A DNA stretch of 64,000 nt, taken from positions 8,011 to 72,010 of the forward strand of contig JAUVKT010000002.1 of NCBI GenBank assembly GCA_030596125.1, in the 5' to 3' direction. Source of the stretch: Bacteroidales bacterium. GTDB lineage: Bacteria > Bacteroidota > Bacteroidia > Bacteroidales > VadinHA17. A program made the position numbers and the translations under genes. The notes beneath the pieces are model-generated. The model did not search any database. It was not told the origin of the DNA and saw nothing but the letters and a program-made list of their open reading frames with translations. Shown in pieces: positions 13,873 to 55,245 of this stretch (positions within the stretch are counted from its first letter, which is position 1; each line of letters opens with the position of its first letter).

Positions 13873-16239
13873 ATGATAAAAAAGAAGAATGTTTATACTA
13901 AATATGTGAGGTGGTTCTGGGTAATATTTACAGCTCCTTTTATCCTGGCAATCACCTTGTTTATACTGATATCAAGTGAGGTTTTTGGCCCGATGCCTTC
14001 CTTCGAAGAGCTTGAAAATCCGGAGAATAATCTTGCCGCCGAGGTTTATTCGTGTGATGGTGTCTTACTGGGGAAATTTTATCTGCAAAACAGGAGCTGG
14101 ACCAATTATGAAGATATTTCACCTTATGTTATAGATGCTCTGATTGCTACCGAAGATATCAGGTTTTACCGTCATTCAGGTATTGATGTACGGGGTCTTG
14201 CCAGGGTTTTGTTTAAGTCGATACTTATGGGTCGCAATACCGGAGGCGGAAGTACGATCTCTCAACAGCTTGCCAAGAATCTTTATAACACCAGGGCCCA
14301 AATGATGGGTAAGACCGGACGCAGAGGCCCTGTTTACCTGGGAATAGCCAAATTTAAGGAGTGGGCAACAGCGGTGAGGCTGGAAAGGAATTATACCAAA
14401 GAGGAGATTATTGCAATGTATCTTAATGTTTATGATTTTCTCTATACTGCAGTTGGTATAAGATCTGCATCGCAGGTATATTTCAATACAACACCCGATT
14501 CTCTGTCGATTGAACAGTCGGCTATGTTTGTAGGGATGCTTAAAAATTCAGCACTTTATAATCCAAAACGTTTCCCTGAAATGATGCTTGATCGCAGAAA
14601 CCTGGTATTGTCGCAGATGACCAAGTATGGTTATCTCGATCAGGAAGTGGCCGATTCAGTGTTACACCTGCCGATAGAGCTTGATTTTAAGGAGCAGAGT
14701 CATGATGTTGGTCTTGCTACCTATTTAAGAGCTTATATCCAGAAAACGATGATTGCTTATGAGCCGGACAGGGACGACTTTATGTTTACCCAGGATTTTG
14801 AAGATGAATTAAGGGAGTGGGAAAACAATCAATTATACGGATGGTGTCGCAGAAACAAGAAACCTGATGGTTCAAACTACAATCTGTATAAGGATGGATT
14901 GAAGATCTATACAACCATTGATTCACGAATGCAACAGTATGCTGAAGAATCTATGGCAGAGCATCTGACTAACGGCCTTCAGCCTGATTTTGACCGCCAT
15001 GCCGAAAGTTTCAGGAGACCTCCTTTCAGTGATGACCTGAAGGCTAAGGATATTAAGAGGATTATGGAGACAGCGATCCGGAGAACCGACAGGTACGGGG
15101 CGCTTGTAAGAGCAGGCAAATCGGAGGATTCCATAAGAATAATCTTCAATAACCCTGTTCCGATGAAATTATATACTCAGGCTGGAGATGTAGATACTCT
15201 TTTGAGTCCGTATGACTCGGTTTATTATTATAAGCATATCATCAGATCAGGCATGATGGCGATGAACCCTCATACCGGACATATAAAAGTATATGTTGGC
15301 GGGCCTGATTTTCGTTATTTTAAGTATGATGCGGTAAGTCAGCAACGTAAACAGGTTGGATCTACCATCAAGCCATTTTTATATACTCTTGCCATGCAGG
15401 ACGGATATTCACCATGTTACGAAGTTGAGAATATTCCAAGGAAATTCATTATTCCGGGCGATACGGTTCCATGGTCACCACGTAGTTCAGGTCCAAGAAA
15501 TTACCACGGTAAAATGGTTACACTGAAGTGGGGGTTAGCTAAATCGGAGAACTATATTTCGGCATGGTTGATGAAACAGTTTGCCCCACAAGCAGTTGTT
15601 GATATGATGGGCCGTATGGGGATCAATATCCAGCCTGAATATGTGGAGCCTGTTCCATCTATTTTTCTTGGTACCGGAATTGTTACACTCAAAGAGATGG
15701 TTGGAGCGTTCTCCACTTTTGCAAATAAAGGTGTATATACCGAACCAATAGTTGTCAGCCACATAGAAGATAGGAATGGTAATGTAATAGACATATTTAC
15801 GCCCCGTATCGAAGAGGTTATGAGTGAGGAGCATGCATACCTGATGGTTAACCTTCTGCAGGGTGTGGTAAACAGAGGGACAGCTGTAAGGCTAAGAAGT
15901 GTTTACCAGCTTCATAGTGAGATTGGAGCAAAGACAGGTACGACACAAAATCATTCTAATGGATGGTTTATGGGAGTTACCCCCAATCTTGTAGGCGGAG
16001 TATGGACGGGATGGGAAGACCAGGGTATTCACTTTGAAAATATTACCCTGGGCCAGGGCTCAAATATGGCATTGCCGGTATTTGGCCTCTTTCTTCAAAA
16101 ACTGTATGCTGATCCGGAGCTGGGAATAATGGAGGCTGATGTTTTTGAGGAACCGGCAGGATTTGATATGGAACTCGATTGCGATAAGGTAAGAAGCGAA
16201 AAATCCGCCAGGAACAGGTATGATATAGAGGGGTTTTAG
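13873..16239 (+). CDS. mrcA: Penicillin-binding protein 1A (bifunctional glycosyltransferase/transpeptidase)
   Basis: GT51 motifs EDIRFYRHSGID and GGSTISQQLAKN. Transpeptidase motifs are SxxK (GSTIKPF) and KTG (AKTGTT). It has an N-terminal TM anchor. Confidence 0.95.
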   Translation: MIKKKNVYTKYVRWFWVIFTAPFILAITLFILISSEVFGPMPSFEELENPENNLAAEVYSCDGVLLGKFYLQNRSWTNYEDISPYVIDALIATEDIRFYRHSGIDVRGLARVLFKSILMGRNTGGGSTISQQLAKNLYNTRAQMMGKTGRRGPVYLGIAKFKEWATAVRLERNYTKEEIIAMYLNVYDFLYTAVGIRSASQVYFNTTPDSLSIEQSAMFVGMLKNSALYNPKRFPEMMLDRRNLVLSQMTKYGYLDQEVADSVLHLPIELDFKEQSHDVGLATYLRAYIQKTMIAYEPDRDDFMFTQDFEDELREWENNQLYGWCRRNKKPDGSNYNLYKDGLKIYTTIDSRMQQYAEESMAEHLTNGLQPDFDRHAESFRRPPFSDDLKAKDIKRIMETAIRRTDRYGALVRAGKSEDSIRIIFNNPVPMKLYTQAGDVDTLLSPYDSVYYYKHIIRSGMMAMNPHTGHIKVYVGGPDFRYFKYDAVSQQRKQVGSTIKPFLYTLAMQDGYSPCYEVENIPRKFIIPGDTVPWSPRSSGPRNYHGKMVTLKWGLAKSENYISAWLMKQFAPQAVVDMMGRMGINIQPEYVEPVPSIFLGTGIVTLKEMVGAFSTFANKGVYTEPIVVSHIEDRNGNVIDIFTPRIEEVMSEEHAYLMVNLLQGVVNRGTAVRLRSVYQLHSEIGAKTGTTQNHSNGWFMGVTPNLVGGVWTGWEDQGIHFENITLGQGSNMALPVFGLFLQKLYADPELGIMEADVFEEPAGFDMELDCDKVRSEKSARNRYDIEGF

Positions 16240-16520
16240 GAGAAGAAGTGCCTAAAGTTAAAAGTGCCTAAAGTGAGCTAAAGTTGAAGAGAAGAAGTGA
16301 CTAAAGTGCCTAAAGTTAAAAGTGCCTAAAGTTGAGGAGAAGAAGTGACTAAAGTTAAAAGTGCCTAAAGTGAGCTAAAGTTGAGGAGAAGAAGTGACTA
16401 AAGTGCCTAAAGTTGAGGAGAAGAAGTGACTAAAGTTAAAAGTGCCTAAAGTGAGCTAAAGTTGAGGAGAAGAAGTGACTAAAGTTAAAAGTGCCTAAAG
16501 TGAGCTAAAGTTGGGGAGAA
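16240..16520 (+). repeat. Modular tandem-repeat array A (281 bp)
   Basis: Modules are C=GTGCCTAAA, D=GTGACTAAA, S=GTGAGCTAAA, K=GTTAAAA and E=GTTGAGGAGAAGAA. The order is (E')CKCS EDCKC EDKCS EDC EDKCS EDKCS E''. The array starts one nt after the PBP1A stop and ends 28 nt before ATG 16549. Confidence 0.95.
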
Positions 16521-16548
16521 GTTATACACTACTTTGAAAGACACACAA

Positions 16549-18000
16549 ATGAAAAAAATACATATCATATTTATAATTAGTATTCTAATATCTTCTTGCA
16601 CAAAGGAAAAGTATTATGACACGGTAGTTGTAGGTGAAATAATTAACGTTGATTCTGGCCAAGTTTTTAGCACTTCACCCTCTAATGGCTTTTCCTACAT
16701 CGGATTTAGGGATACAATTCAACTTGACTCTACTGGCATATTTAAGATTAACTGTAAGATTAAAGAACCCGGCCTTATCCAATTTTATTATAAGAAATTA
16801 TATACTTTCTACGTCAATCCAGGGGACTCAATTAAGGTCAAAATAATGCCTTCCGGGCTTGAAGTCAGTGGAGATAATGGAACTGGTAATAAATTTTTAA
16901 ATACATTAAATCGACCATTTTATGCACAGACTGATGCAATTCAGTTTTTTGGGGACACCCTTATGTCAAGCCTGTTACCTAAAATAGATGGACGGAATAA
17001 TAAGGAAATAATACATCTTGACAGTTTAAATGGAATAGAACAAATCAACAAAGACTTCTATTCATTCATCAATGAAGACATTAATACATATTATTCGAAT
17101 CTACTTTCTGAAATAGCATCTTTATATTACTTTAAATCATTTCGTGAAAAATCTGGAGAAATTCGTATCCCAAGCTCTATAGATTCTCTTTGGAAAAGCC
17201 TGTATGAAACTAAGGATATTAGCTTTACTTCATCAGTATATTCAAACTGGTGGTATGACTATACATTGAACTACTTGCTTAATTTCATTGACTATACAAA
17301 TGACGAAGGTAATAGTGATATTCAACATCTTAAAGTATTAGAAAGAGCAATGAAAAGACTTGACGCAAATGATCTTGAGGTGTTCTTAGCTAGATACATA
17401 CATATATTTGCCAGACAGAATAAACTTGAGAAGGAACTAATTACTATGTATCAAGAATTCAAAACTCGATTCCCGAAAAGCCCTTTCATTAACTTTCTCA
17501 CGCCTGAGATAAATAAGATAACCACATTCTATGAAAATCTTTCAAACAAAGACCCGGAAATAATCATGATTCCAGGTTATGAAGGTATTAACACCCTAAC
17601 TGATATAAAGGATCAATTCACGGATAATATTATTTATATCGATATCTGGGCTACATGGTGTGGATCATGTTTGGAGGAGTTTGGACACTACACCACCATA
17701 TTAGAGAAATATGAAAACTCTAATATCAAGTTTGTATTTCTTTCCATAGATCGGTCAAACATGAAGGAGAAGTGGTTAGATGTAATTGAAGGATATGAAT
17801 TAAAAGGTTATCATATTCTTGCAAATGCACAATTACAATCTCATTTGCATAACCTATTCAATAACTCTGAAGGAGAATATTTTATTCCCAGATATGTATT
17901 AATTGGATCAGATGGTAAAATAATCAGTGACTCTGCTAAAAGGCCAAGTGATGGCAAGGAATTATTTGATCAACTAGATTCCGCATTATCTGATTTATAA
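16549..18000 (+). CDS. Thioredoxin-fold (TlpA/ResA-like) lipoprotein with a long N-terminal domain
   Basis: Lipoprotein signal MKKIHIIFIISILISSC and CxxC motif WATWCGSC in a C-terminal thioredoxin-like domain. ORF 16534 starts at TTG, so I prefer ATG 16549. Confidence 0.85.
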   Translation: MKKIHIIFIISILISSCTKEKYYDTVVVGEIINVDSGQVFSTSPSNGFSYIGFRDTIQLDSTGIFKINCKIKEPGLIQFYYKKLYTFYVNPGDSIKVKIMPSGLEVSGDNGTGNKFLNTLNRPFYAQTDAIQFFGDTLMSSLLPKIDGRNNKEIIHLDSLNGIEQINKDFYSFINEDINTYYSNLLSEIASLYYFKSFREKSGEIRIPSSIDSLWKSLYETKDISFTSSVYSNWWYDYTLNYLLNFIDYTNDEGNSDIQHLKVLERAMKRLDANDLEVFLARYIHIFARQNKLEKELITMYQEFKTRFPKSPFINFLTPEINKITTFYENLSNKDPEIIMIPGYEGINTLTDIKDQFTDNIIYIDIWATWCGSCLEEFGHYTTILEKYENSNIKFVFLSIDRSNMKEKWLDVIEGYELKGYHILANAQLQSHLHNLFNNSEGEYFIPRYVLIGSDGKIISDSAKRPSDGKELFDQLDSALSDL

Positions 18001-18015
18001 TAAAATAGCTGTATC

Positions 18016-18197
18016 GTTAAAAGTGCCTAAAGTGCCTAAAGTTGGGGAGAAGAAGTGCCTAAAGTTGGGGAGAAGAAGTGACTAAAGTTGGGGAGAAGAA
18101 GTGACTAAAGTTGGGGAGAAGAAGTGACTAAAGTTAAAAGTGCCTAAAGCTTAAAGACTGAGGACTGAAGGCTGATGACTGAAGACTGATGACTGAA
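18016..18197 (+). repeat. Modular tandem-repeat array B (182 bp) ending in a GACTGA-type microsatellite
   Basis: The order is K C C, then 4 x (GTTGGGGAGAAGAA + GTGCCTAAA/GTGACTAAA), then K C. It ends with GCTTAAA GACTGAG GACTGAAG GCTGAT GACTGAA GACTGAT GACTGAA. The array ends 1 nt before the radA stop codon (18199-18201). Confidence 0.95.
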
Positions 18198-18198
18198 A

Positions 18199-19554
18199 TT
18201 ATCCAAAAAGCTTCTTCACAAGATCTTCTACCTTGCCGGTTTCCACAATATCGATATTGGGTTTTCCGATATCAACCTTCCGGTTATACTTAGAAATAAA
18301 AATTTTATCAAAACCCAGCTTGCCGGCTTCTTTAATTCGCTGGTTGATATGACTTACCGGCCTTATTTCTCCACTTAATCCGGTTTCTCCGGCGAAGCAA
18401 AGTTTTTTACTTATGGGGATATCGAGGTTGGAGGAGAGAACGGCACTGATTACCGACATATCAATAGCCGGATCGGTTACTTTTAATCCGCCTGCTATGT
18501 TGAGGAAAACATCTTTTATCCCGAGCCTGAATCCGGCCCTCTTTTCAAGAACCGCAAGCAGCATATTAAGCCTTTTGATATCAAAACCGGTAGAGCTTCT
18601 TTGAGGAGTTCCATATACGGCGCTGCTGACAAGAGACTGTGTTTCGATCATAAACGGACGATTGCCATCGATGGTTGCGGCGATTGCGATGCCACTGAGA
18701 TCTTCATTATGCTGATTGATAAACATCTCACTAGGGTTTGACACCTCTCTTAATCCGTTTGACAGCATTTCATATATACCCAGTTCGTTGGTTGAGCCAA
18801 ACCTGTTCTTAACGGCTCTTAGTATTCTGTATATATAATTATTATCACCTTCAAATTGCAGTACTACATCAACAATGTGTTCCAGGATCTTCGGGCCTGC
18901 AAGATTTCCGTCTTTGGTAATATGTCCGATTATAAGCACAGGAATCCCTGTCTGTTTGGCATATTTAAGTAATAGAACCGCACTCTCCCTTACCTGGGAT
19001 ATTGAGCCTGCTGATGATTCTATAGTTGAGGTATTTATTGTTTGAATACTATCAATAATCAGTATAGCAGGTTTAATCTTTTCTGATTGGTTAAGTATAT
19101 TCTCGAGGGATGTTTCGTTGTAAATATAACAGGAGTCATTGCTATCCTTTAGCCGGTCAGATCGTAGCCTGATCTGCTCCCCGCTCTCTTCACCCGAGAC
19201 ATACAGTACTTTGTTGCCATCCATTTTCATGGCAAGCTGGAGGGCAAGTGTTGATTTTCCTATTCCTGGTTCGCCGCCAAAGAGAATAAGTGACCCTGGC
19301 ACCAGGCCTCCTCCAAGTATCCTGTCAATCTCTTTTAGTCCGGTTATTATTCTTCTTTTATTTGAGGAGGTGATCTCACTTATCAGTTCAGGCCGGGAAG
19401 GTGTGTCTGTGAATGAGACTGTCTCTTTTTTTGTTTTGACGAAGATCTCCTCAACATATGTGTTCCACTCACCACACGAAGGACACCGGCCAATCCATTT
19501 TGATGAATCAGCACCACAATTGGCACACATATATACTGTCTTGCTTTTAGCCAT
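18199..19554 (-). CDS. radA: DNA repair protein RadA
   Basis: Zn ribbon CANCGADSSKWIGRCPSCGEWN, Walker A GEPGIGKST, the KNRFG motif and a Lon-protease-like C-terminal domain. Confidence 0.97.
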   Translation of the reverse strand: MAKSKTVYMCANCGADSSKWIGRCPSCGEWNTYVEEIFVKTKKETVSFTDTPSRPELISEITSSNKRRIITGLKEIDRILGGGLVPGSLILFGGEPGIGKSTLALQLAMKMDGNKVLYVSGEESGEQIRLRSDRLKDSNDSCYIYNETSLENILNQSEKIKPAILIIDSIQTINTSTIESSAGSISQVRESAVLLLKYAKQTGIPVLIIGHITKDGNLAGPKILEHIVDVVLQFEGDNNYIYRILRAVKNRFGSTNELGIYEMLSNGLREVSNPSEMFINQHNEDLSGIAIAATIDGNRPFMIETQSLVSSAVYGTPQRSSTGFDIKRLNMLLAVLEKRAGFRLGIKDVFLNIAGGLKVTDPAIDMSVISAVLSSNLDIPISKKLCFAGETGLSGEIRPVSHINQRIKEAGKLGFDKIFISKYNRKVDIGKPNIDIVETGKVEDLVKKLFG

Positions 19555-21895: not shown

Positions 21896-22003
21896 GTTGA
21901 GAAGAAGTTAAAAGTGACTAAAGTTTGAAGTGACTAAAGTTGGGAGGTTGAGGAGTTTAGGGGTTTAGAATACGAGAAGGGGGGAGTGGGGGAATGGAGA
22001 ATC
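21896..22003 (+). repeat. Modular repeat array C, continuing into a G-run motif
   Basis: GTTGAGAAGAA GTTAAAA GTGACTAAA GTTTGAA GTGACTAAA GTTGGGAG GTTGAGGAG ..., then GAAGGGGGGAGTGGGGGAATGGAGAAT (21976-22002). It lies in the divergent panC/glgA intergenic region. Confidence 0.85.
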
Positions 22004-37945: not shown

Positions 37946-38077
37946 TTTTCACTTTAAACTTCTTTTCAACTTTAGTCACTTTTAACTTTAGTCACTTTAG
38001 TCACTTCTTCTCCCCAACTTTAGCTCACTTTAGCTCACTTTTCACTTTAGTCACTTCTTCATTTAGTCACTTCTTCA
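37946..38077 (-). repeat. Modular repeat array D, in reverse orientation relative to arrays A-C
   Basis: The plus strand reads TTTAGTCAC, TTTTAAC, TTCTTCTCCCCAAC and TTTAGCTCAC, which are reverse complements of modules D, K, E and S. It lies 45 nt upstream of the porX ATG and overlaps the last codons and stop of the sprE-like gene. Confidence 0.92.
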
Positions 38078-40712
38078 TAAGGTAATTTTCAAGAAAGAAC
38101 AGATGATATTTTTCGGAATCCTTTTCAGTAATAAATATTTTGAGGTTATCATCAGATATTATGAAAGCTATTACCTCACTATTGTCTGTATTGCTTAGTA
38201 TGGCTTTTGGGTCGAACATATGATAATACCCGGTTGCTGTTTCACTGTTTTCAAAGGTTCCAACGGTTATCATCAGGTATAAATCATCGACAAGCTCACC
38301 TTTGGTACTGTAATTTTCGTTGGTGAAGTTATCGATATTGAAGTTGATCACATCAAATGTAAGCCTGTTGATATCCAGGTCTCTGTTTTTAATTATCAGC
38401 ACAAAAGAGTGCTGTCCTTCAGAACTGGCAGAATATATCTTTCTTGCAATTTCTTTTTGTTCCTCTATTTTAAGTTCGGGAACTTTCTTGTTTAACCAGG
38501 CAATCAGTTCTTCGGCCCGTCTGCTCTCATCGGTATCAGGGAACAGGCGCACAATCTTATTCAGTTCTGCTTTAAGGCTTCTCTCATCGATATTTTTTGC
38601 CAGTGCATAAGTGCGTAAAAGCATAAACCTGGCAGTCAGTTTGCCCTCGGGAAACTGTTCAAGAGCAGAGTCGCAAATTGATATAGTGAGTTCATAATCT
38701 TCGTTTTCCCAGGCTGTATAGGCGCTGTTATATATAAATTCTTCCCTCTCCGATTTTTTAATCATAGACTGGAAATAGTCAGGGTCTGAAAGAATCATGG
38801 CATACTCTGTTTCCGGGAACCGTGTTATAAGTCTGTTTTTATGGATCTCTGCAAGGGATCTGTTAATATCGATGTTAAGGTTGTGAAGGTTATATAGTGC
38901 CGGAGGAATCAGATCATGATCAGGAAATCGCTCAATGAGGCTGTTATAAGTTTCGTTTGCCTTAACGGGGTCCTTAATACGGTCGGCAAATATCTTGCTT
39001 GCATTAAACAGAGCTCCGGCAATTTTATCATTTGAGATATTGATAAGAGAATCGGTAAGGGGAAGATCATTTCTGTAAAACTCAGGTGATTTGTTATCAA
39101 GGGTTGTTGCCGTTGAATCTGAAGGATCCTGAAGGTTGTCAATTGACTCCGTATCAAAATTCATTGTGGATTTATTGGACCTTCTCCAGTTGTCTTCCAG
39201 CTTTCTTTGCCCCCATCTGTTACGGAACTCAGACCTTCCGAAAGTGAGGGCTGCCTGGTTATAAAAATACCACTTACCGCTGGCGTCTATATTATCCCTG
39301 AATCTTCTCTGGTTTTCATAGAATTCTCCCATATTATACCGGTCATCAGTCTGAGTTTCACGCGCCCTTTCTTCTTCTTCTATTTGTCTGATTATTTCAT
39401 TTATAAGGGATTCTCTCTTTGCTTCAGGAAGTGAAGCAACATATTGCAGGCTGTCTTCCCTGTCTATTACATTAAGATTAACGGACAGTTCATTCAGGTT
39501 AAGTGATCTTTCATAGAATTCATTATAACCGGGGTATTTATTATCCAGGAAAATGACAGCACTGTCATAATAAACCTGAGAGATCCGGTAATCATATTTG
39601 TTAAAAAAATGATCTGCCAGAACGAGGTATGATTTTCCTTTCTGATTTGTGTTGGTAGTACTTGCAGAAGCTGATTTTCGCATATAATCAATTGCTTCTT
39701 CTATATTTCCCTCTCTCATCGAGAGGTTTCCCAGGGCATAATAGATCAGGTCATGATATTCCTTGTTTTTCGCATCTTTTAAAAGCTTGTTCAGTTCCCT
39801 GCTAATTTCATCTGAGTTACCGGTTGATACATCAAACACACCAGCCTGGTTTATTTTCGCATTAAACTCGAGTTCATATGGAGGATTTAATTTTAATACC
39901 TCCTTATAGTAATTACCTGCATCAGCGCTTCTGTCAGTCTCCTCGTATAATCTTGCCAGTATATATGTTTGCCTGTTCTTAGGAGATTTTCCGGTCATAT
40001 TTTCAAGGGCAGAGGAGAGTGGGGGTATGGCCTCATTATATTTTCGCTGTTTCATATATATGTCGGCCCTGGTAAGGTAAAATTCTGAAAGCAGCTTTTT
40101 GGACAGGGGGCCTGTTTCCATTTCGGTTAGCAGTCTCATACTTTCATAATAGTCACCTGCTTCGGCTATTGCACGTGCGAGCCAGATTGTACTTTCAGCT
40201 TTAATAACCGGATCGTGTGACTCTCTGATATTATGAAGAAAAGTAATCCTTGCTCCACTGAAATCATGTTTCATGATCTGAGCTTTTCCCATAAGAAGAT
40301 AACTGTCATCTACCCAGTCGTTATAGTCATTCCTTGAGAACATCTCTTTTTCTTTTTCACTAAGCGGCTGGTTATTTTTTCTCTCAGGTTTAGCAGTAAT
40401 GGAGTGAAGGTGGATTAATTTACCGGCTTTTTGAATAGCTCTGTCCATATCCGATGAGGCGGAAGAAATTGCATCGGGATTACTATACTCAAATAGTGAC
40501 ATAATGGTGGTATAATCATCTCTGTGTGATTTTGTTATACTCTCCATGCCATGTAAATAGCTTTCAATACCGTTAAAGTAGATATTGTAATGTGAGGTAA
40601 GGTTATGATAGAACCGGCTCATGTTGGTGTTTTTCTCAACCGAACATGAATATCCCATTACCAGAATTACCAATAAGAGGAAGCCTTTATATGACTTAAT
40701 ACCTTCTATCAA
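38067..40712 (-). CDS. sprE: TPR-repeat lipoprotein, SprE/PorW-like T9SS component
   Basis: Lipobox LVMGYSC, the N-terminal FYHNLTSHYNIYFNG motif I associate with SprE/PorW, and multiple TPR-like repeats. 881 aa with a TTG start at 40712. Confidence 0.6.
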   Translation of the reverse strand: MIEGIKSYKGFLLLVILVMGYSCSVEKNTNMSRFYHNLTSHYNIYFNGIESYLHGMESITKSHRDDYTTIMSLFEYSNPDAISSASSDMDRAIQKAGKLIHLHSITAKPERKNNQPLSEKEKEMFSRNDYNDWVDDSYLLMGKAQIMKHDFSGARITFLHNIRESHDPVIKAESTIWLARAIAEAGDYYESMRLLTEMETGPLSKKLLSEFYLTRADIYMKQRKYNEAIPPLSSALENMTGKSPKNRQTYILARLYEETDRSADAGNYYKEVLKLNPPYELEFNAKINQAGVFDVSTGNSDEISRELNKLLKDAKNKEYHDLIYYALGNLSMREGNIEEAIDYMRKSASASTTNTNQKGKSYLVLADHFFNKYDYRISQVYYDSAVIFLDNKYPGYNEFYERSLNLNELSVNLNVIDREDSLQYVASLPEAKRESLINEIIRQIEEEERARETQTDDRYNMGEFYENQRRFRDNIDASGKWYFYNQAALTFGRSEFRNRWGQRKLEDNWRRSNKSTMNFDTESIDNLQDPSDSTATTLDNKSPEFYRNDLPLTDSLINISNDKIAGALFNASKIFADRIKDPVKANETYNSLIERFPDHDLIPPALYNLHNLNIDINRSLAEIHKNRLITRFPETEYAMILSDPDYFQSMIKKSEREEFIYNSAYTAWENEDYELTISICDSALEQFPEGKLTARFMLLRTYALAKNIDERSLKAELNKIVRLFPDTDESRRAEELIAWLNKKVPELKIEEQKEIARKIYSASSEGQHSFVLIIKNRDLDINRLTFDVINFNIDNFTNENYSTKGELVDDLYLMITVGTFENSETATGYYHMFDPKAILSNTDNSEVIAFIISDDNLKIFITEKDSEKYHLFFLENYLMKK

Positions 40713-50856: not shown

Positions 50857-50882
50857 AAAAAAAGAGTCCGTCTACGCCGGAC
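50857..50882 (-). terminator. Rho-independent-type terminator on the minus strand
   Basis: The stem is GTCCG (50866-70) / CGGAC (50878-82) with a 7-nt loop. On the minus strand it is followed by a 7-nt U-run (plus-strand A-run 50857-63). Confidence 0.5.
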
Positions 50883-50912
50883 CCCTTTTGATTTCAGTTA
50901 GCTTAGCTGGTG
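50880..50912 (+). repeat. Left copy of a 33-nt imperfect direct repeat bracketing the Y1-transposase element
   Basis: GACCCCTTTTGATTTCAGTTAGCTTAGCTGGTG is identical at 27/33 positions to 51815-51847. Confidence 0.8.
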
Positions 50913-50948
50913 AAAAACAGATACAAGAAATTCAACTTTCACATAAAA

Positions 50949-51633
50949 CTGCCGTAGGCAGGATATGATATAGCCTGAGTCGTCAGACTCAGACTTTGAA
51001 AGAGGATATAGCAATGAGTTCCGTAGGAACGAAATGTTTTGTTCTAAAAGAATTCCAGGAGATATTCTTTTTCAAAGGTAATCCCATAATGATTCAATAG
51101 TTTCAGATATTCTTCTCTAAAACATGATTTTTTATGATGTCCCTTCTGGTTTTCAATGTAGCTTATCAATTCAGGGACATTTCTGTGACTAACTGAAAAT
51201 ATCCCTCCACCGGATTGCCAATTAAATCTTTGATTGAGAAATTTCTTTTCGTTAATCCACCTTGACGAATTTGTTTTTATAGCCTGTATGAATTTTGATG
51301 GGGCCAAAGAAGGTCTTAAACGTACTAATAAATGACAATGATCGGGCATGCCATTTATTCTGATTAATTGTTGGTCAAGATTTTTTATAATTCCGGCAAT
51401 GTATTTATAAAGCTCTTCTTCAAATTCAGCTTTAATAAGTGCTTGTCTGTATTTTGGAGAAAATACATAATGAAGATAGATTTGTGAATAAGTATTGGGC
51501 ATTGTTCAGGGTTTTTGATTTGGTTAAGCTTTAAAGATATAAAATCATAACGTTCCTACGGAACTTTATTTCTCTGGAGTTCATTATCAAGGGACTTACG
51601 TCCCTGGTTATGATATCTTATCCCTATGGGATA
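50949..51633 (-). mobile_element. REPtron-like unit: IS200-like Y1 (RAYT-type) transposase gene flanked by mirrored triplets of short hairpins
   Basis: Left hairpins are CTGCC-GTA-GGCAG (50949-61), CTGAGTC-GTCA-GACTCAG (50975-92) and GTTCC-GTA-GGAAC (51018-30). Right hairpins are GTTCC-TAC-GGAAC (51552-64), GGGAC-TTAC-GTCCC (51591-604) and TATCCC-TAT-GGGATA (51619-33). The inter-hairpin offsets mirror each other (26/14 on the left, 27/15 on the right). Confidence 0.7.
51044..51502 (-). CDS. IS200/IS605-like Y1 transposase, REP-associated tyrosine transposase (RAYT) type
   Basis: 152 aa with the HUH motif MPDHCHLLV and the C-terminal catalytic-Tyr region ELISYIENQKGHH. Confidence 0.88.
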   Translation of the reverse strand: MPNTYSQIYLHYVFSPKYRQALIKAEFEEELYKYIAGIIKNLDQQLIRINGMPDHCHLLVRLRPSLAPSKFIQAIKTNSSRWINEKKFLNQRFNWQSGGGIFSVSHRNVPELISYIENQKGHHKKSCFREEYLKLLNHYGITFEKEYLLEFF

Positions 51634-51814: not shown

Positions 51815-51847
51815 GACCCTTAATGTTTTCAGTTAGCTTGGCTGGCG
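51815..51847 (+). repeat. Right copy of the 33-nt direct repeat, immediately 3' of the pepC-like stop codon
   Basis: GACCCTTAATGTTTTCAGTTAGCTTGGCTGGCG. It is preceded by a weak minus-strand terminator-like hairpin, GGTCTG-aatac-CAGGCC plus a U-rich tract, in the same relative position as the hairpin next to the left copy. Confidence 0.8.
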
Positions 51848-55150: not shown

Positions 55151-55245
55151 TGGAAATGGAATGGTGGAGTACCGGAAAAGTGGAATATTGGAAGAAAAGA
55201 GTGGGGGAGTGGGGGAATGGGAGAAGCGTGGAGAAGGAGGAGGAT
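55151..55245 (+). repeat. Purine-rich GGAA/GTGG tract (array E) containing the GGGGGAGTGGGGGAATGG motif
   Basis: TGGAAATGGAATGGTGGAG...GTGGAATATTGGAAGAAAAGAGTGGGGGAGTGGGGGAATGGGAGAAGCGTGGAGAAGGAGGAGG. It is almost C-free on the plus strand. 55199-55226 matches 21976-22002 in array C. Confidence 0.8.

Follow-up and report, generated by a model that had tools for sequence, protein, structure and literature searches.

Short tandem word arrays at gene ends of a Bacteroidales bacterium, possibly derived from a palindromic intergenic repeat found in several phyla and in phages

We analyzed a stretch of 64,000 nt from a Bacteroidales bacterium (GenBank assembly GCA_030596125.1, contig JAUVKT010000002.1, positions 8,011 to 72,010 of the forward strand; hereafter, the window), in which four intergenic spacers hold purine-rich tandem arrays of very short units, designated arrays A to D. 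Array A fills most of the spacer between the PBP1A gene and a gene for a thioredoxin-like (trx-like) lipoprotein leaving 28 nt to the start codon of the latter. Array B begins 15 nt past the trx-like stop codon and faces the 3' end of the convergent radA gene, and the TGA stop codon of a TPR gene (38067–38069) sits within the first word of array D. The coordinates of these and related features are given in Table 1.

The arrays consist of modules joined head-to-tail. In array A these are GTGACTAAA, GTGCCTAAA, GTGAGCTAAA, GTTAAAA and GTTG(A/G)GGAGAAGAA, and the set common to the four window arrays is GTGACTAAA / GTGCCTAAA / GTGAGCTAAA / GTTAAAA / GTTGRGGAGAAGAA, the last being referred to as the E module. 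Array words are 9–10 nt long and share an invariant 8-nt core, CTAAAGTG. Exact CTAAAGT cores were found 17 times in array A, 6 times in B (plus one CTAAAGC), twice in C and 6 times in D (plus one CTAAATG), and only 3 of the 34 in the window were located outside these arrays. A search for AAGTGNCTAAAGT with up to 2 mismatches gave 31 matches in the window compared with 6.3 ± 2.5 in 100 dinucleotide-preserving shuffles of it, none of which reached 31. Tandem Repeats Finder detected periods of 49, 81, 97 and 130 nt in array A, the 81-nt period being present in 2.1 copies with 100% identity, and, in array B, 4.6 copies of a 23-nt unit that are 98% identical. Word arrays are 71–73% purine with 4–9% C (71% and 9%, respectively, in array A).

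These data agree with a preliminary description of this DNA, made from its sequence alone, in that the modular repeat family is genuine, its arrays are present in the sequence and they are intergenic. No open reading frame (ORF) of at least 40 aa was found across array A or B, the sense strand of array A has 11–13 stop codons per frame, and only 2 of the 253 arrays in all array-bearing loci examined were inside ORFs. CRISPR was rightly rejected there, as the units are 7–14 nt, abutting and without unique spacers, as opposed to repeats of 23–50 nt with spacers. Some array boundaries had to be redrawn. The array placed at 18016–18197 with 7 modules does have 7 words in 18016–18153, but 18154–18198 consists of separate heptamers, which directly follow the radA stop codon. 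Similarly, the 2 words of the array placed at 21896–22003 lie within 21896–21945, but 21946–22003 is a G-rich octamer tract, and the related purine tract at 55151–55245 shares the composition of the arrays but none of their words. Because the latter two tracts lack array words, their kinship with the arrays is by composition only. Array C and the G-rich tract at 55151–55245 are both in divergent spacers. G-rich octamers (GAGTGGGG, GAATGGGG, GGTTTAGG) occur in two divergent promoter regions (21946–22003 and 55199–55245), each upstream of an exact Bacteroidota −7 box (TAnnTTTG).

Short-read assemblies of the same strain, made independently, have contigs that end within arrays A, B and C but include their edges, which recurred in three independent sequencing runs. 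Thus, the arrays are real, whereas their copy numbers in the window are insecure.

Table 1. Word arrays, related tracts and adjoining genes in the window
Feature	Position	Strand	Remarks
Array A	16240–16521	+	17 CTAAAGT-core words and 5 E modules; one-armed; 49/81/97-nt higher-order blocks
Array B	18016–18153	+	7 words; (E+A) 23-nt unit x 4.6
Array C	21896–21945	+	partial E module, one GTTAAAA, 2 words; divergent panC/glgA spacer
Array D	37946–38080	-	7 words; one-armed; spacer between TPR gene and porX
Heptamer array	18154–18198	-	distinct from array B; (CAGTCWT)x6 on radA sense strand
G-rich octamer-like tract	21946–22003	+	GGTTTAGG, GAATGGGG; adjoins array C
Purine tract	55151–55245	+	GAGTGGGG octamers; 82% purine, 3% C; zero CTAAAGT words
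Lone E module GGGGAGAAGAA	46147–46159	+	1 nt from start codon of opposite-strand DNA polymerase III delta' gene; probably a remnant
PBP1A gene	13873–16239	+	TAG stop at 16237–16239; array A begins at next base
Thioredoxin-like lipoprotein gene	16549–18000	+	between arrays A and B
radA	18199–19554	-	convergent with trx-like gene; in relatives directly convergent with PBP1A

The same words were detected far beyond this genome. A collection with one genome per species was scanned with the pattern GAGAAGAAGTGMCTAAAGT, and a second pattern was used for IMG/VR and metagenomes. The genome scan yielded 35 loci, compared with approximately 9 expected by chance (computed from the size of the collection), and about as many loci as expected by chance were isolated intragenic matches, for example in Vibrio and Staphylococcus. 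In the remainder, there were extra words that the pattern did not demand (GTGAGCTAAA, GTGAACTAAA, GTGCCTAAA), and words common to the genome-scan loci were GTGCCTAAA, GTGACTAAA and GTGA[AG]CTAAA. As labelled in their records, the carriers were four Candidatus Scalindua metagenome-assembled genomes (MAGs) and another Planctomycetota MAG; several Desulfobacterales/Desulfohalobiaceae MAGs and a 'delta proteobacterium' MAG whose contigs are 0.5–1 Mb long; Prolixibacteraceae, Tangfeifania and Bacteroidales; and one short Chloroflexota contig. The best named matches of the uppP gene beside one Scalindua element were from Scalindua/Brocadiales. In IMG/VR, 17 loci were found, several of which belong to related lambda-like phages with a G+C content of ~0.55, and viral contigs with words encode TerL (large terminase), portal and TerS (small terminase) proteins. 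At least 120 metagenomic contigs (G+C content 0.30–0.60) also had words. The word inventory was identical across the genome, viral and metagenome sets, with a core-to-core period of mostly 9 or 10, and identical words occurred in hosts whose G+C content ranged from 0.36 to 0.58.

We could not match this family to a known one. Rfam was searched with the window and with 20 loci, using the gathering and more permissive thresholds, and none of its families covered the arrays, in agreement with the preliminary description, which did not recognize the repeat either; a BLAST search of array A against plasmid and phage databases gave zero matches; and a literature search for the word strings returned unrelated primers only and no published description of the family.

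In the other genomes, the usual form of the element is a polar palindrome with two arms, in which a purine arm, preceded by an A/G-rich outer tract, is separated by a core from a pyrimidine arm. Among inverted pairs no more than 250 nt apart, the purine arm came first, on either strand, in 59 of 62 (p = 2e-14), and the 3 pairs in reverse order were all in one locus, between tandem elements. The folding energies of the hairpins formed by two-armed pairs were −34 to −62 kcal/mol (z-scores −4.6 to −8.2). Just outside the first word, 8–10 nt rich in A/G and poor in C correspond to the E module, and the complement of this tract forms a U/C-rich tail past the second arm. Thus, the E module, whose purine-rich core had been read as a Shine-Dalgarno-like signal, behaves as the outer tract of the element. 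The arms contained the same words throughout, and the sequences between them fell into core families that recur on unrelated contigs. The largest has 14 members with the core AAGGAATTCTGCC - A/T-rich stretch - ATGGAGCGAAGCGACACC, a second is specific to Scalindua, and a third was represented by four copies on one 56-kb contig. The window contains one-armed copies only, with no inverted partner present.

Word arrays also serve as landing sites for further mini-elements. Other small repeats were nested in them (L017 ~1500–1680; L042 2130–2370; L081 879–932), including a GGAGTA-word hairpin with a flanking duplication of ~24 nt, hairpins of REP-like type (for example CCCTGCGAACGCAGGG), and a GC hairpin located in the middle of a word. 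Reading of the arrays on the reverse strand produced spurious ORFs ('TLAHFRHFSSL'; L070, L079, L124, L130, L136 and L148), which run into a conserved adjoining element (translated as '...LLFMQNKPNF...'). This element recurs in 9 loci and is another repeat that accompanies the words.

To describe the position of the arrays, we used 80 one-armed arrays from many genomes that have neighbors on both sides. In 60 of them (p = 9e-6), the shorter distance to an ORF was on the side of the purine strand's 5' (outer) end, the medians being 26 nt at this end and 123 nt at the 3' end. On the 5' side, 49 of the 80 arrays had a same-strand stop codon as neighbor (median gap 14 nt) and the other 31 an opposite-strand start codon (median 76 nt), whereas a same-strand start codon was located at a median of 100 nt from the 3' end of the array. 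The split of 49 to 31 (p = 0.06; 33 to 23 when only co-directional genes were considered) shows that the orientation bias relative to transcription is modest, and the robust feature is the outer end abutting an ORF. As the co-directional bias is weak, selection against Rho-dependent polarity is only an idea for the cause of this orientation. The preliminary description had tied the arrays to the downstream gene, and its distances to the start codons of trx-like, glgA, porX and waaA genes (28, 154, 45 and about 46 nt) were correct; however, it is the ORF on the 5' side, mostly an upstream same-strand gene with its stop codon, that the arrays abut, and as array B lies between convergent genes, no same-strand gene comes after it. 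The same kind of location is known for unrelated heptamer repeats of Xanthomonas and Nostoc, which are closer to the 5' neighboring ORF whatever its orientation, lie within 50 bp of a stop codon or overlap it, and are few between divergent genes; their copy number varies and no connection to mobile elements has been reported (Rehm et al. 2015, PMC4692102).

Length variation of the variable-number tandem repeat (VNTR) type, a behavior that the preliminary description suggested looking for, was evident between relatives. In the window genome and its relatives, 0, 1, 2–4 or 17 words follow the PBP1A stop codon. In relatives with 93–95% RadA identity, the PBP1A/radA spacer is 55–236 nt long with 1–4 words past the PBP1A stop, and in a relative with 81% RadA identity it is 4 nt long with zero words; in several relatives the words sit between syntenic genes. 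The site past the radA stop codon is also variable (window 18154–18198, L038 1384–1426 and L186 2458–2495). Heptamers of CAGTC type are present in the window, as (CAGTCWT)6, and in a relative with 93% RadA identity, as CTTAGCC/CTCAGTC units; a relative with 98% identity has (GGGTGTC)3 instead, and others have neither kind. Thus, word families replace one another at this site. The relative with 81% RadA identity has zero CTAAAGT words and carries arrays of its own between convergent genes (GGTTGAAACTG x 3–4 and CTTAGCYCTCTGCCC x 2; L044 5216–5350), so that the phenomenon is general and the vocabulary lineage-dependent. Filled and empty sites were observed in other groups as well. Related phages have arrays at differing intergenic sites, and the homologous sites are short array-free spacers; Scalindua species with identical gene order are without both elements of a Scalindua MAG locus (L021).

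The trx-like gene was missing from the PBP1A–radA site in all relatives examined and is therefore an accessory gene that was inserted into the array zone in this lineage. Only two homologs, with 52% and 45% identity, were found among 5.8 billion proteins, and as neither is flanked by words, the idea that it is a gene cassette was dropped.

With a rough probability of 0.5, we interpret arrays A–D as descendants, reduced to one arm and amplified locally, of a palindromic repeat of the MITE/REPIN type that is non-coding, intergenic and widespread and has arms consisting of CTAAAGTG words. In its canonical form, found in other genomes, this element has an A/G-rich outer tract, 3–5 words forming the purine arm, a core of 12–205 nt that is characteristic of the family, the words of the first arm in inverted orientation and a U/C-rich outer tract. 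Conserved inverted arms and variable cores in many copies are the pattern of MITE families and REPIN doublets, and an outer end flush with an ORF is expected for element halves that filled a very short spacer. Its copies lie at gene ends, in short spacers without genes, and their outer end abuts the ORF. Whole elements may have moved by copy-and-paste and may have passed between bacterial phyla and into phages, whereas in the Bacteroidales lineage of the window only half-elements would be left. In these, the words are likely to have multiplied via replication slippage or unequal recombination of multi-word blocks (23, 49 and 81 nt), producing a minisatellite that varies between close relatives. 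The identities of 100% for the 81-nt period and 98% for the 23-nt period point to block duplications of recent date. RNA transcribed from a one-armed array would be unstructured and C-poor, and one-armed arrays are probably near-neutral.

Several observations weigh against this interpretation. Neither a transposase nor any other partner was detected. No protein family recurs beside the arrays: all-against-all clustering of ~1,000 neighboring ORFs returned only kinases, phage packaging genes and spurious array-reading ORFs. Arm pairs enclosing an ORF were absent from ~1.2 Mb of array-bearing loci, and no consistent target-site duplication was found at the element ends. A link to the Y1 transposase encoded in the window was considered and dropped, as this gene is flanked by other hairpins and has no homolog in the other loci examined. 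In addition, the heptamers of Xanthomonas and Nostoc are equally flush with stop codons (PMC4692102), so that the cause could be some general process at gene ends that involves no transposon. Finally, identical words in hosts of such different G+C content imply either very recent transfer or selection on the words, and selection would point to a function or a binding factor rather than to neutrality.

The Y1 transposase gene (IS200-like, 152 aa, 51044–51502, minus strand) has flanking hairpins centred on CCGTAGG or ACGTAAGT, and 31-nt direct repeats (50880–50910 and 51815–51845) bracket a unit of ~935 nt that contains it. The sole Rfam match in the window, Acido-Lenti-1 (50948–50993), coincides with the 3' flank of this gene, so that this Rfam 'sRNA' may be a transposon-end structure.

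A further possibility, which we put forward tentatively, is that CTAAAGTG words are recognition sites of a dedicated, horizontally transferred trans-acting factor present in at least three phyla and in phages. Possible candidates are an as yet unrecognized transposase or HUH-type enzyme that moves word-armed hairpins, or a DNA- or RNA-binding protein that uses polar gene-end signals such as terminators or insulators. If such a factor exists, the family would represent a new mobile or regulatory system and not decaying repeat DNA.

The main rival interpretation, with a likelihood that we would place at a similarly low level, is that the elements are functional gene-end signals acting in RNA. 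The two-armed copies would then be bidirectional hairpin terminators or 3'-end protectors, by analogy with REP/BIME, and the one-armed copies would be unstructured, C-poor intercistronic or 3'-untranslated spacers that resist Rho loading, or platforms for RNA-binding proteins. The succession of A/G tract, hairpin and U/C tract has the layout of a bidirectional terminator, the hairpins of two-armed copies are strong, and the elements lie flush after stop codons, with an upstream same-strand gene in the majority of the arrays (49/80). Intrinsic termination works with any bacterial RNA polymerase, and such an element might thus be useful across phyla and phages. Moreover, as arrays have only 3–9% C, their antisense transcripts would be C-rich, G-poor and rut-like. 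However, window arrays have no second arm, no extra structure and no terminator-like site. The predicted RNA fold of array A had z = +2.1, with structure below that of 198 of 200 shuffles, and arrays B and D (z = −0.3 and −0.8) were like shuffles; a sigma-70 promoter and terminator scan of 16150–18300 gave no site within array A or B, and the promoter count for the region equaled that of shuffles; and the short G+C-rich stem-loop followed by a U tract that characterizes intrinsic terminators was absent from this region. In two-armed copies, stems are long and AU-rich with big loops, and the outer tract is only 40–50% A, unlike canonical terminators. The weak orientation bias also argues against such a role, and as arrays come and go between relatives at 93–98% RadA identity, no gene depends on them.

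A less likely possibility is that the words are double-stranded DNA sites for a sequence-specific protein (nucleoid-associated, centromere- or iteron-like, or a direct-repeat binder of the response-regulator type), with the arrays serving as multivalent landing pads. The invariant 8-nt core, the 9–10-bp period close to one helical turn and the preservation of the vocabulary irrespective of host G+C content are consistent with this proposal, and ribbon-helix-helix and partition proteins typically have operators in which short repeats are arrayed in direct and inverted orientation. However, no neighboring gene recurs, the arrays flank housekeeping genes without regulon logic, their copy number is hypervariable, and no candidate protein is common to the phages, Planctomycetota, Desulfobacterota and Bacteroidota.

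Very unlikely, in our view, is the proposal of the preliminary description that the arrays are leader or promoter elements which tune the downstream gene by means of the −7-box-like CTAAAGTTG and Shine-Dalgarno-like E modules. It is true that the purine strand is co-oriented with the next gene in four window loci and that an E module followed by GTG reads like a ribosome-binding site with its start codon. However, an exact TAnnTTTG box was absent from every array; the exact boxes are located between array or tract and start codon (glgA, 22114; waaA, 55259), and the glgA stretch, box included, is conserved between the window and the relative at 81% RadA identity, which lacks the array. Array B and many arrays elsewhere are between convergent genes, and as noted above, array 3' ends are much farther from a same-strand start codon than outer ends are from the upstream stop. 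An assembly artefact or chimeric joining through a contaminant repeat can practically be dismissed, since although short-read contigs break inside A, B and C and leave their lengths uncertain, the edges recurred in three independent runs, the words lie between syntenic genes in relatives and carriers include contigs of 0.5–1 Mb.

Some other known sites and roles were compared with the arrays by eye only and dropped. These were complementarity to the 3' end of 16S rRNA or to T7 epsilon; sigma-54, IHF, MatP, CtrA, lambda Int arm-type and attC core sites; and in-frame back-up stop codons, as the next stop in the PBP1A frame is 13 codons away. Junctions read by eye had no bridging ORF that might couple translation.

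As a rule, a small intergenic repeat of the REP, MITE, STRR or MIRU kind is confined to one lineage. Against this background, a single vocabulary in at least three phyla and tailed phages, kept unchanged at G+C contents of 0.36–0.58, points either to continuing exchange across phyla or to a conserved factor that recognizes the words. The family may offer a tractable entry to the long-open question of what role short tandem repeats play at bacterial gene ends. In practical terms, the arrays break short-read assemblies and yield spurious ORF calls, they mark sites of rapid change (in the window an accessory gene is inserted between two of them), and they could be used as VNTR markers for uncultured sediment bacteria.

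It is instructive to compare the word element with known repeat families. REP, REPIN and BIME sequences are extragenic, located mostly downstream of ORFs in co-directional or convergent spacers, occur in several phyla and are regarded as mobile DNA of the non-autonomous kind (Di Nocera 2013, PMC3733652; Bertels and Rainey 2011, PMC3116915). The word element resembles them in location, in mosaic clusters and in inverted doublets that form larger hairpins (59 pairs, in other genomes). However, whereas a REP unit is an imperfect palindrome of 20–40 nt, a single arm here is not a palindrome and consists of tandem direct words of 9–10 nt. The GTAG/CGTC tag is absent, the outer flank being an A/G-rich tract followed by AAGTG, no word-flanked RAYT gene was found in the loci examined, and it is the word sequence itself, not the architecture alone, that is common to phyla and phages. 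Two-armed copies elsewhere are like MITEs in having inverted arms, a length of 110–250 nt, family-specific cores, multiple copies per genome, and filled and empty sites. They differ in that neither a consistent target-site duplication nor a parent transposon was found, and in that the arms have a repetitive interior and can grow into long arrays with one arm. The attC sites of integrons (RYYYAAC ... GTTRRRY) are different, as the outer ends are GAGAAGAAGTG ... CACTTCTTCTC and the flanks are syntenic housekeeping genes.

Among simple sequence repeats, STRR-type heptamers such as GGGAATC in Xanthomonas and GGGGA(C/T)T in Nostoc (Rehm 2015, PMC4692102) are short tandem units enriched in non-coding DNA, with inverted copies and a copy number that varies between relatives, and except for unit length the window arrays have the features of this class. 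In contrast to these heptamers, the word element is built from a vocabulary of mixed 9–10-nt units, lacks quadruplex-type G-tracts and is part of a defined two-armed element; the window has STRR-type heptamers of its own past radA. MIRU-VNTR loci contain a variable number of intergenic units that overlap the stop or start codons of flanking genes and appear mobile; the units are 40–100 bp long, contain ORFs through which translation is coupled to that of the flanking genes, and are restricted to one genus (PMC3184786, PMC12548453). The word arrays share with MIRU the intergenic tandem units and the ends that overlap codons of flanking genes, but no coupling ORF is evident in them. BOX elements of Streptococcus pneumoniae, which are composed of boxA, a variable number of boxB and boxC, are likewise modular and intergenic, and differ in having species-specific modules of 45–60 nt. 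Since the word element lacks defining features of each of these families, we group it with REP-, MITE-, STRR- and MIRU-like repeats as a variant, whose unusual property is that one word vocabulary is common to at least three phyla and to phages.

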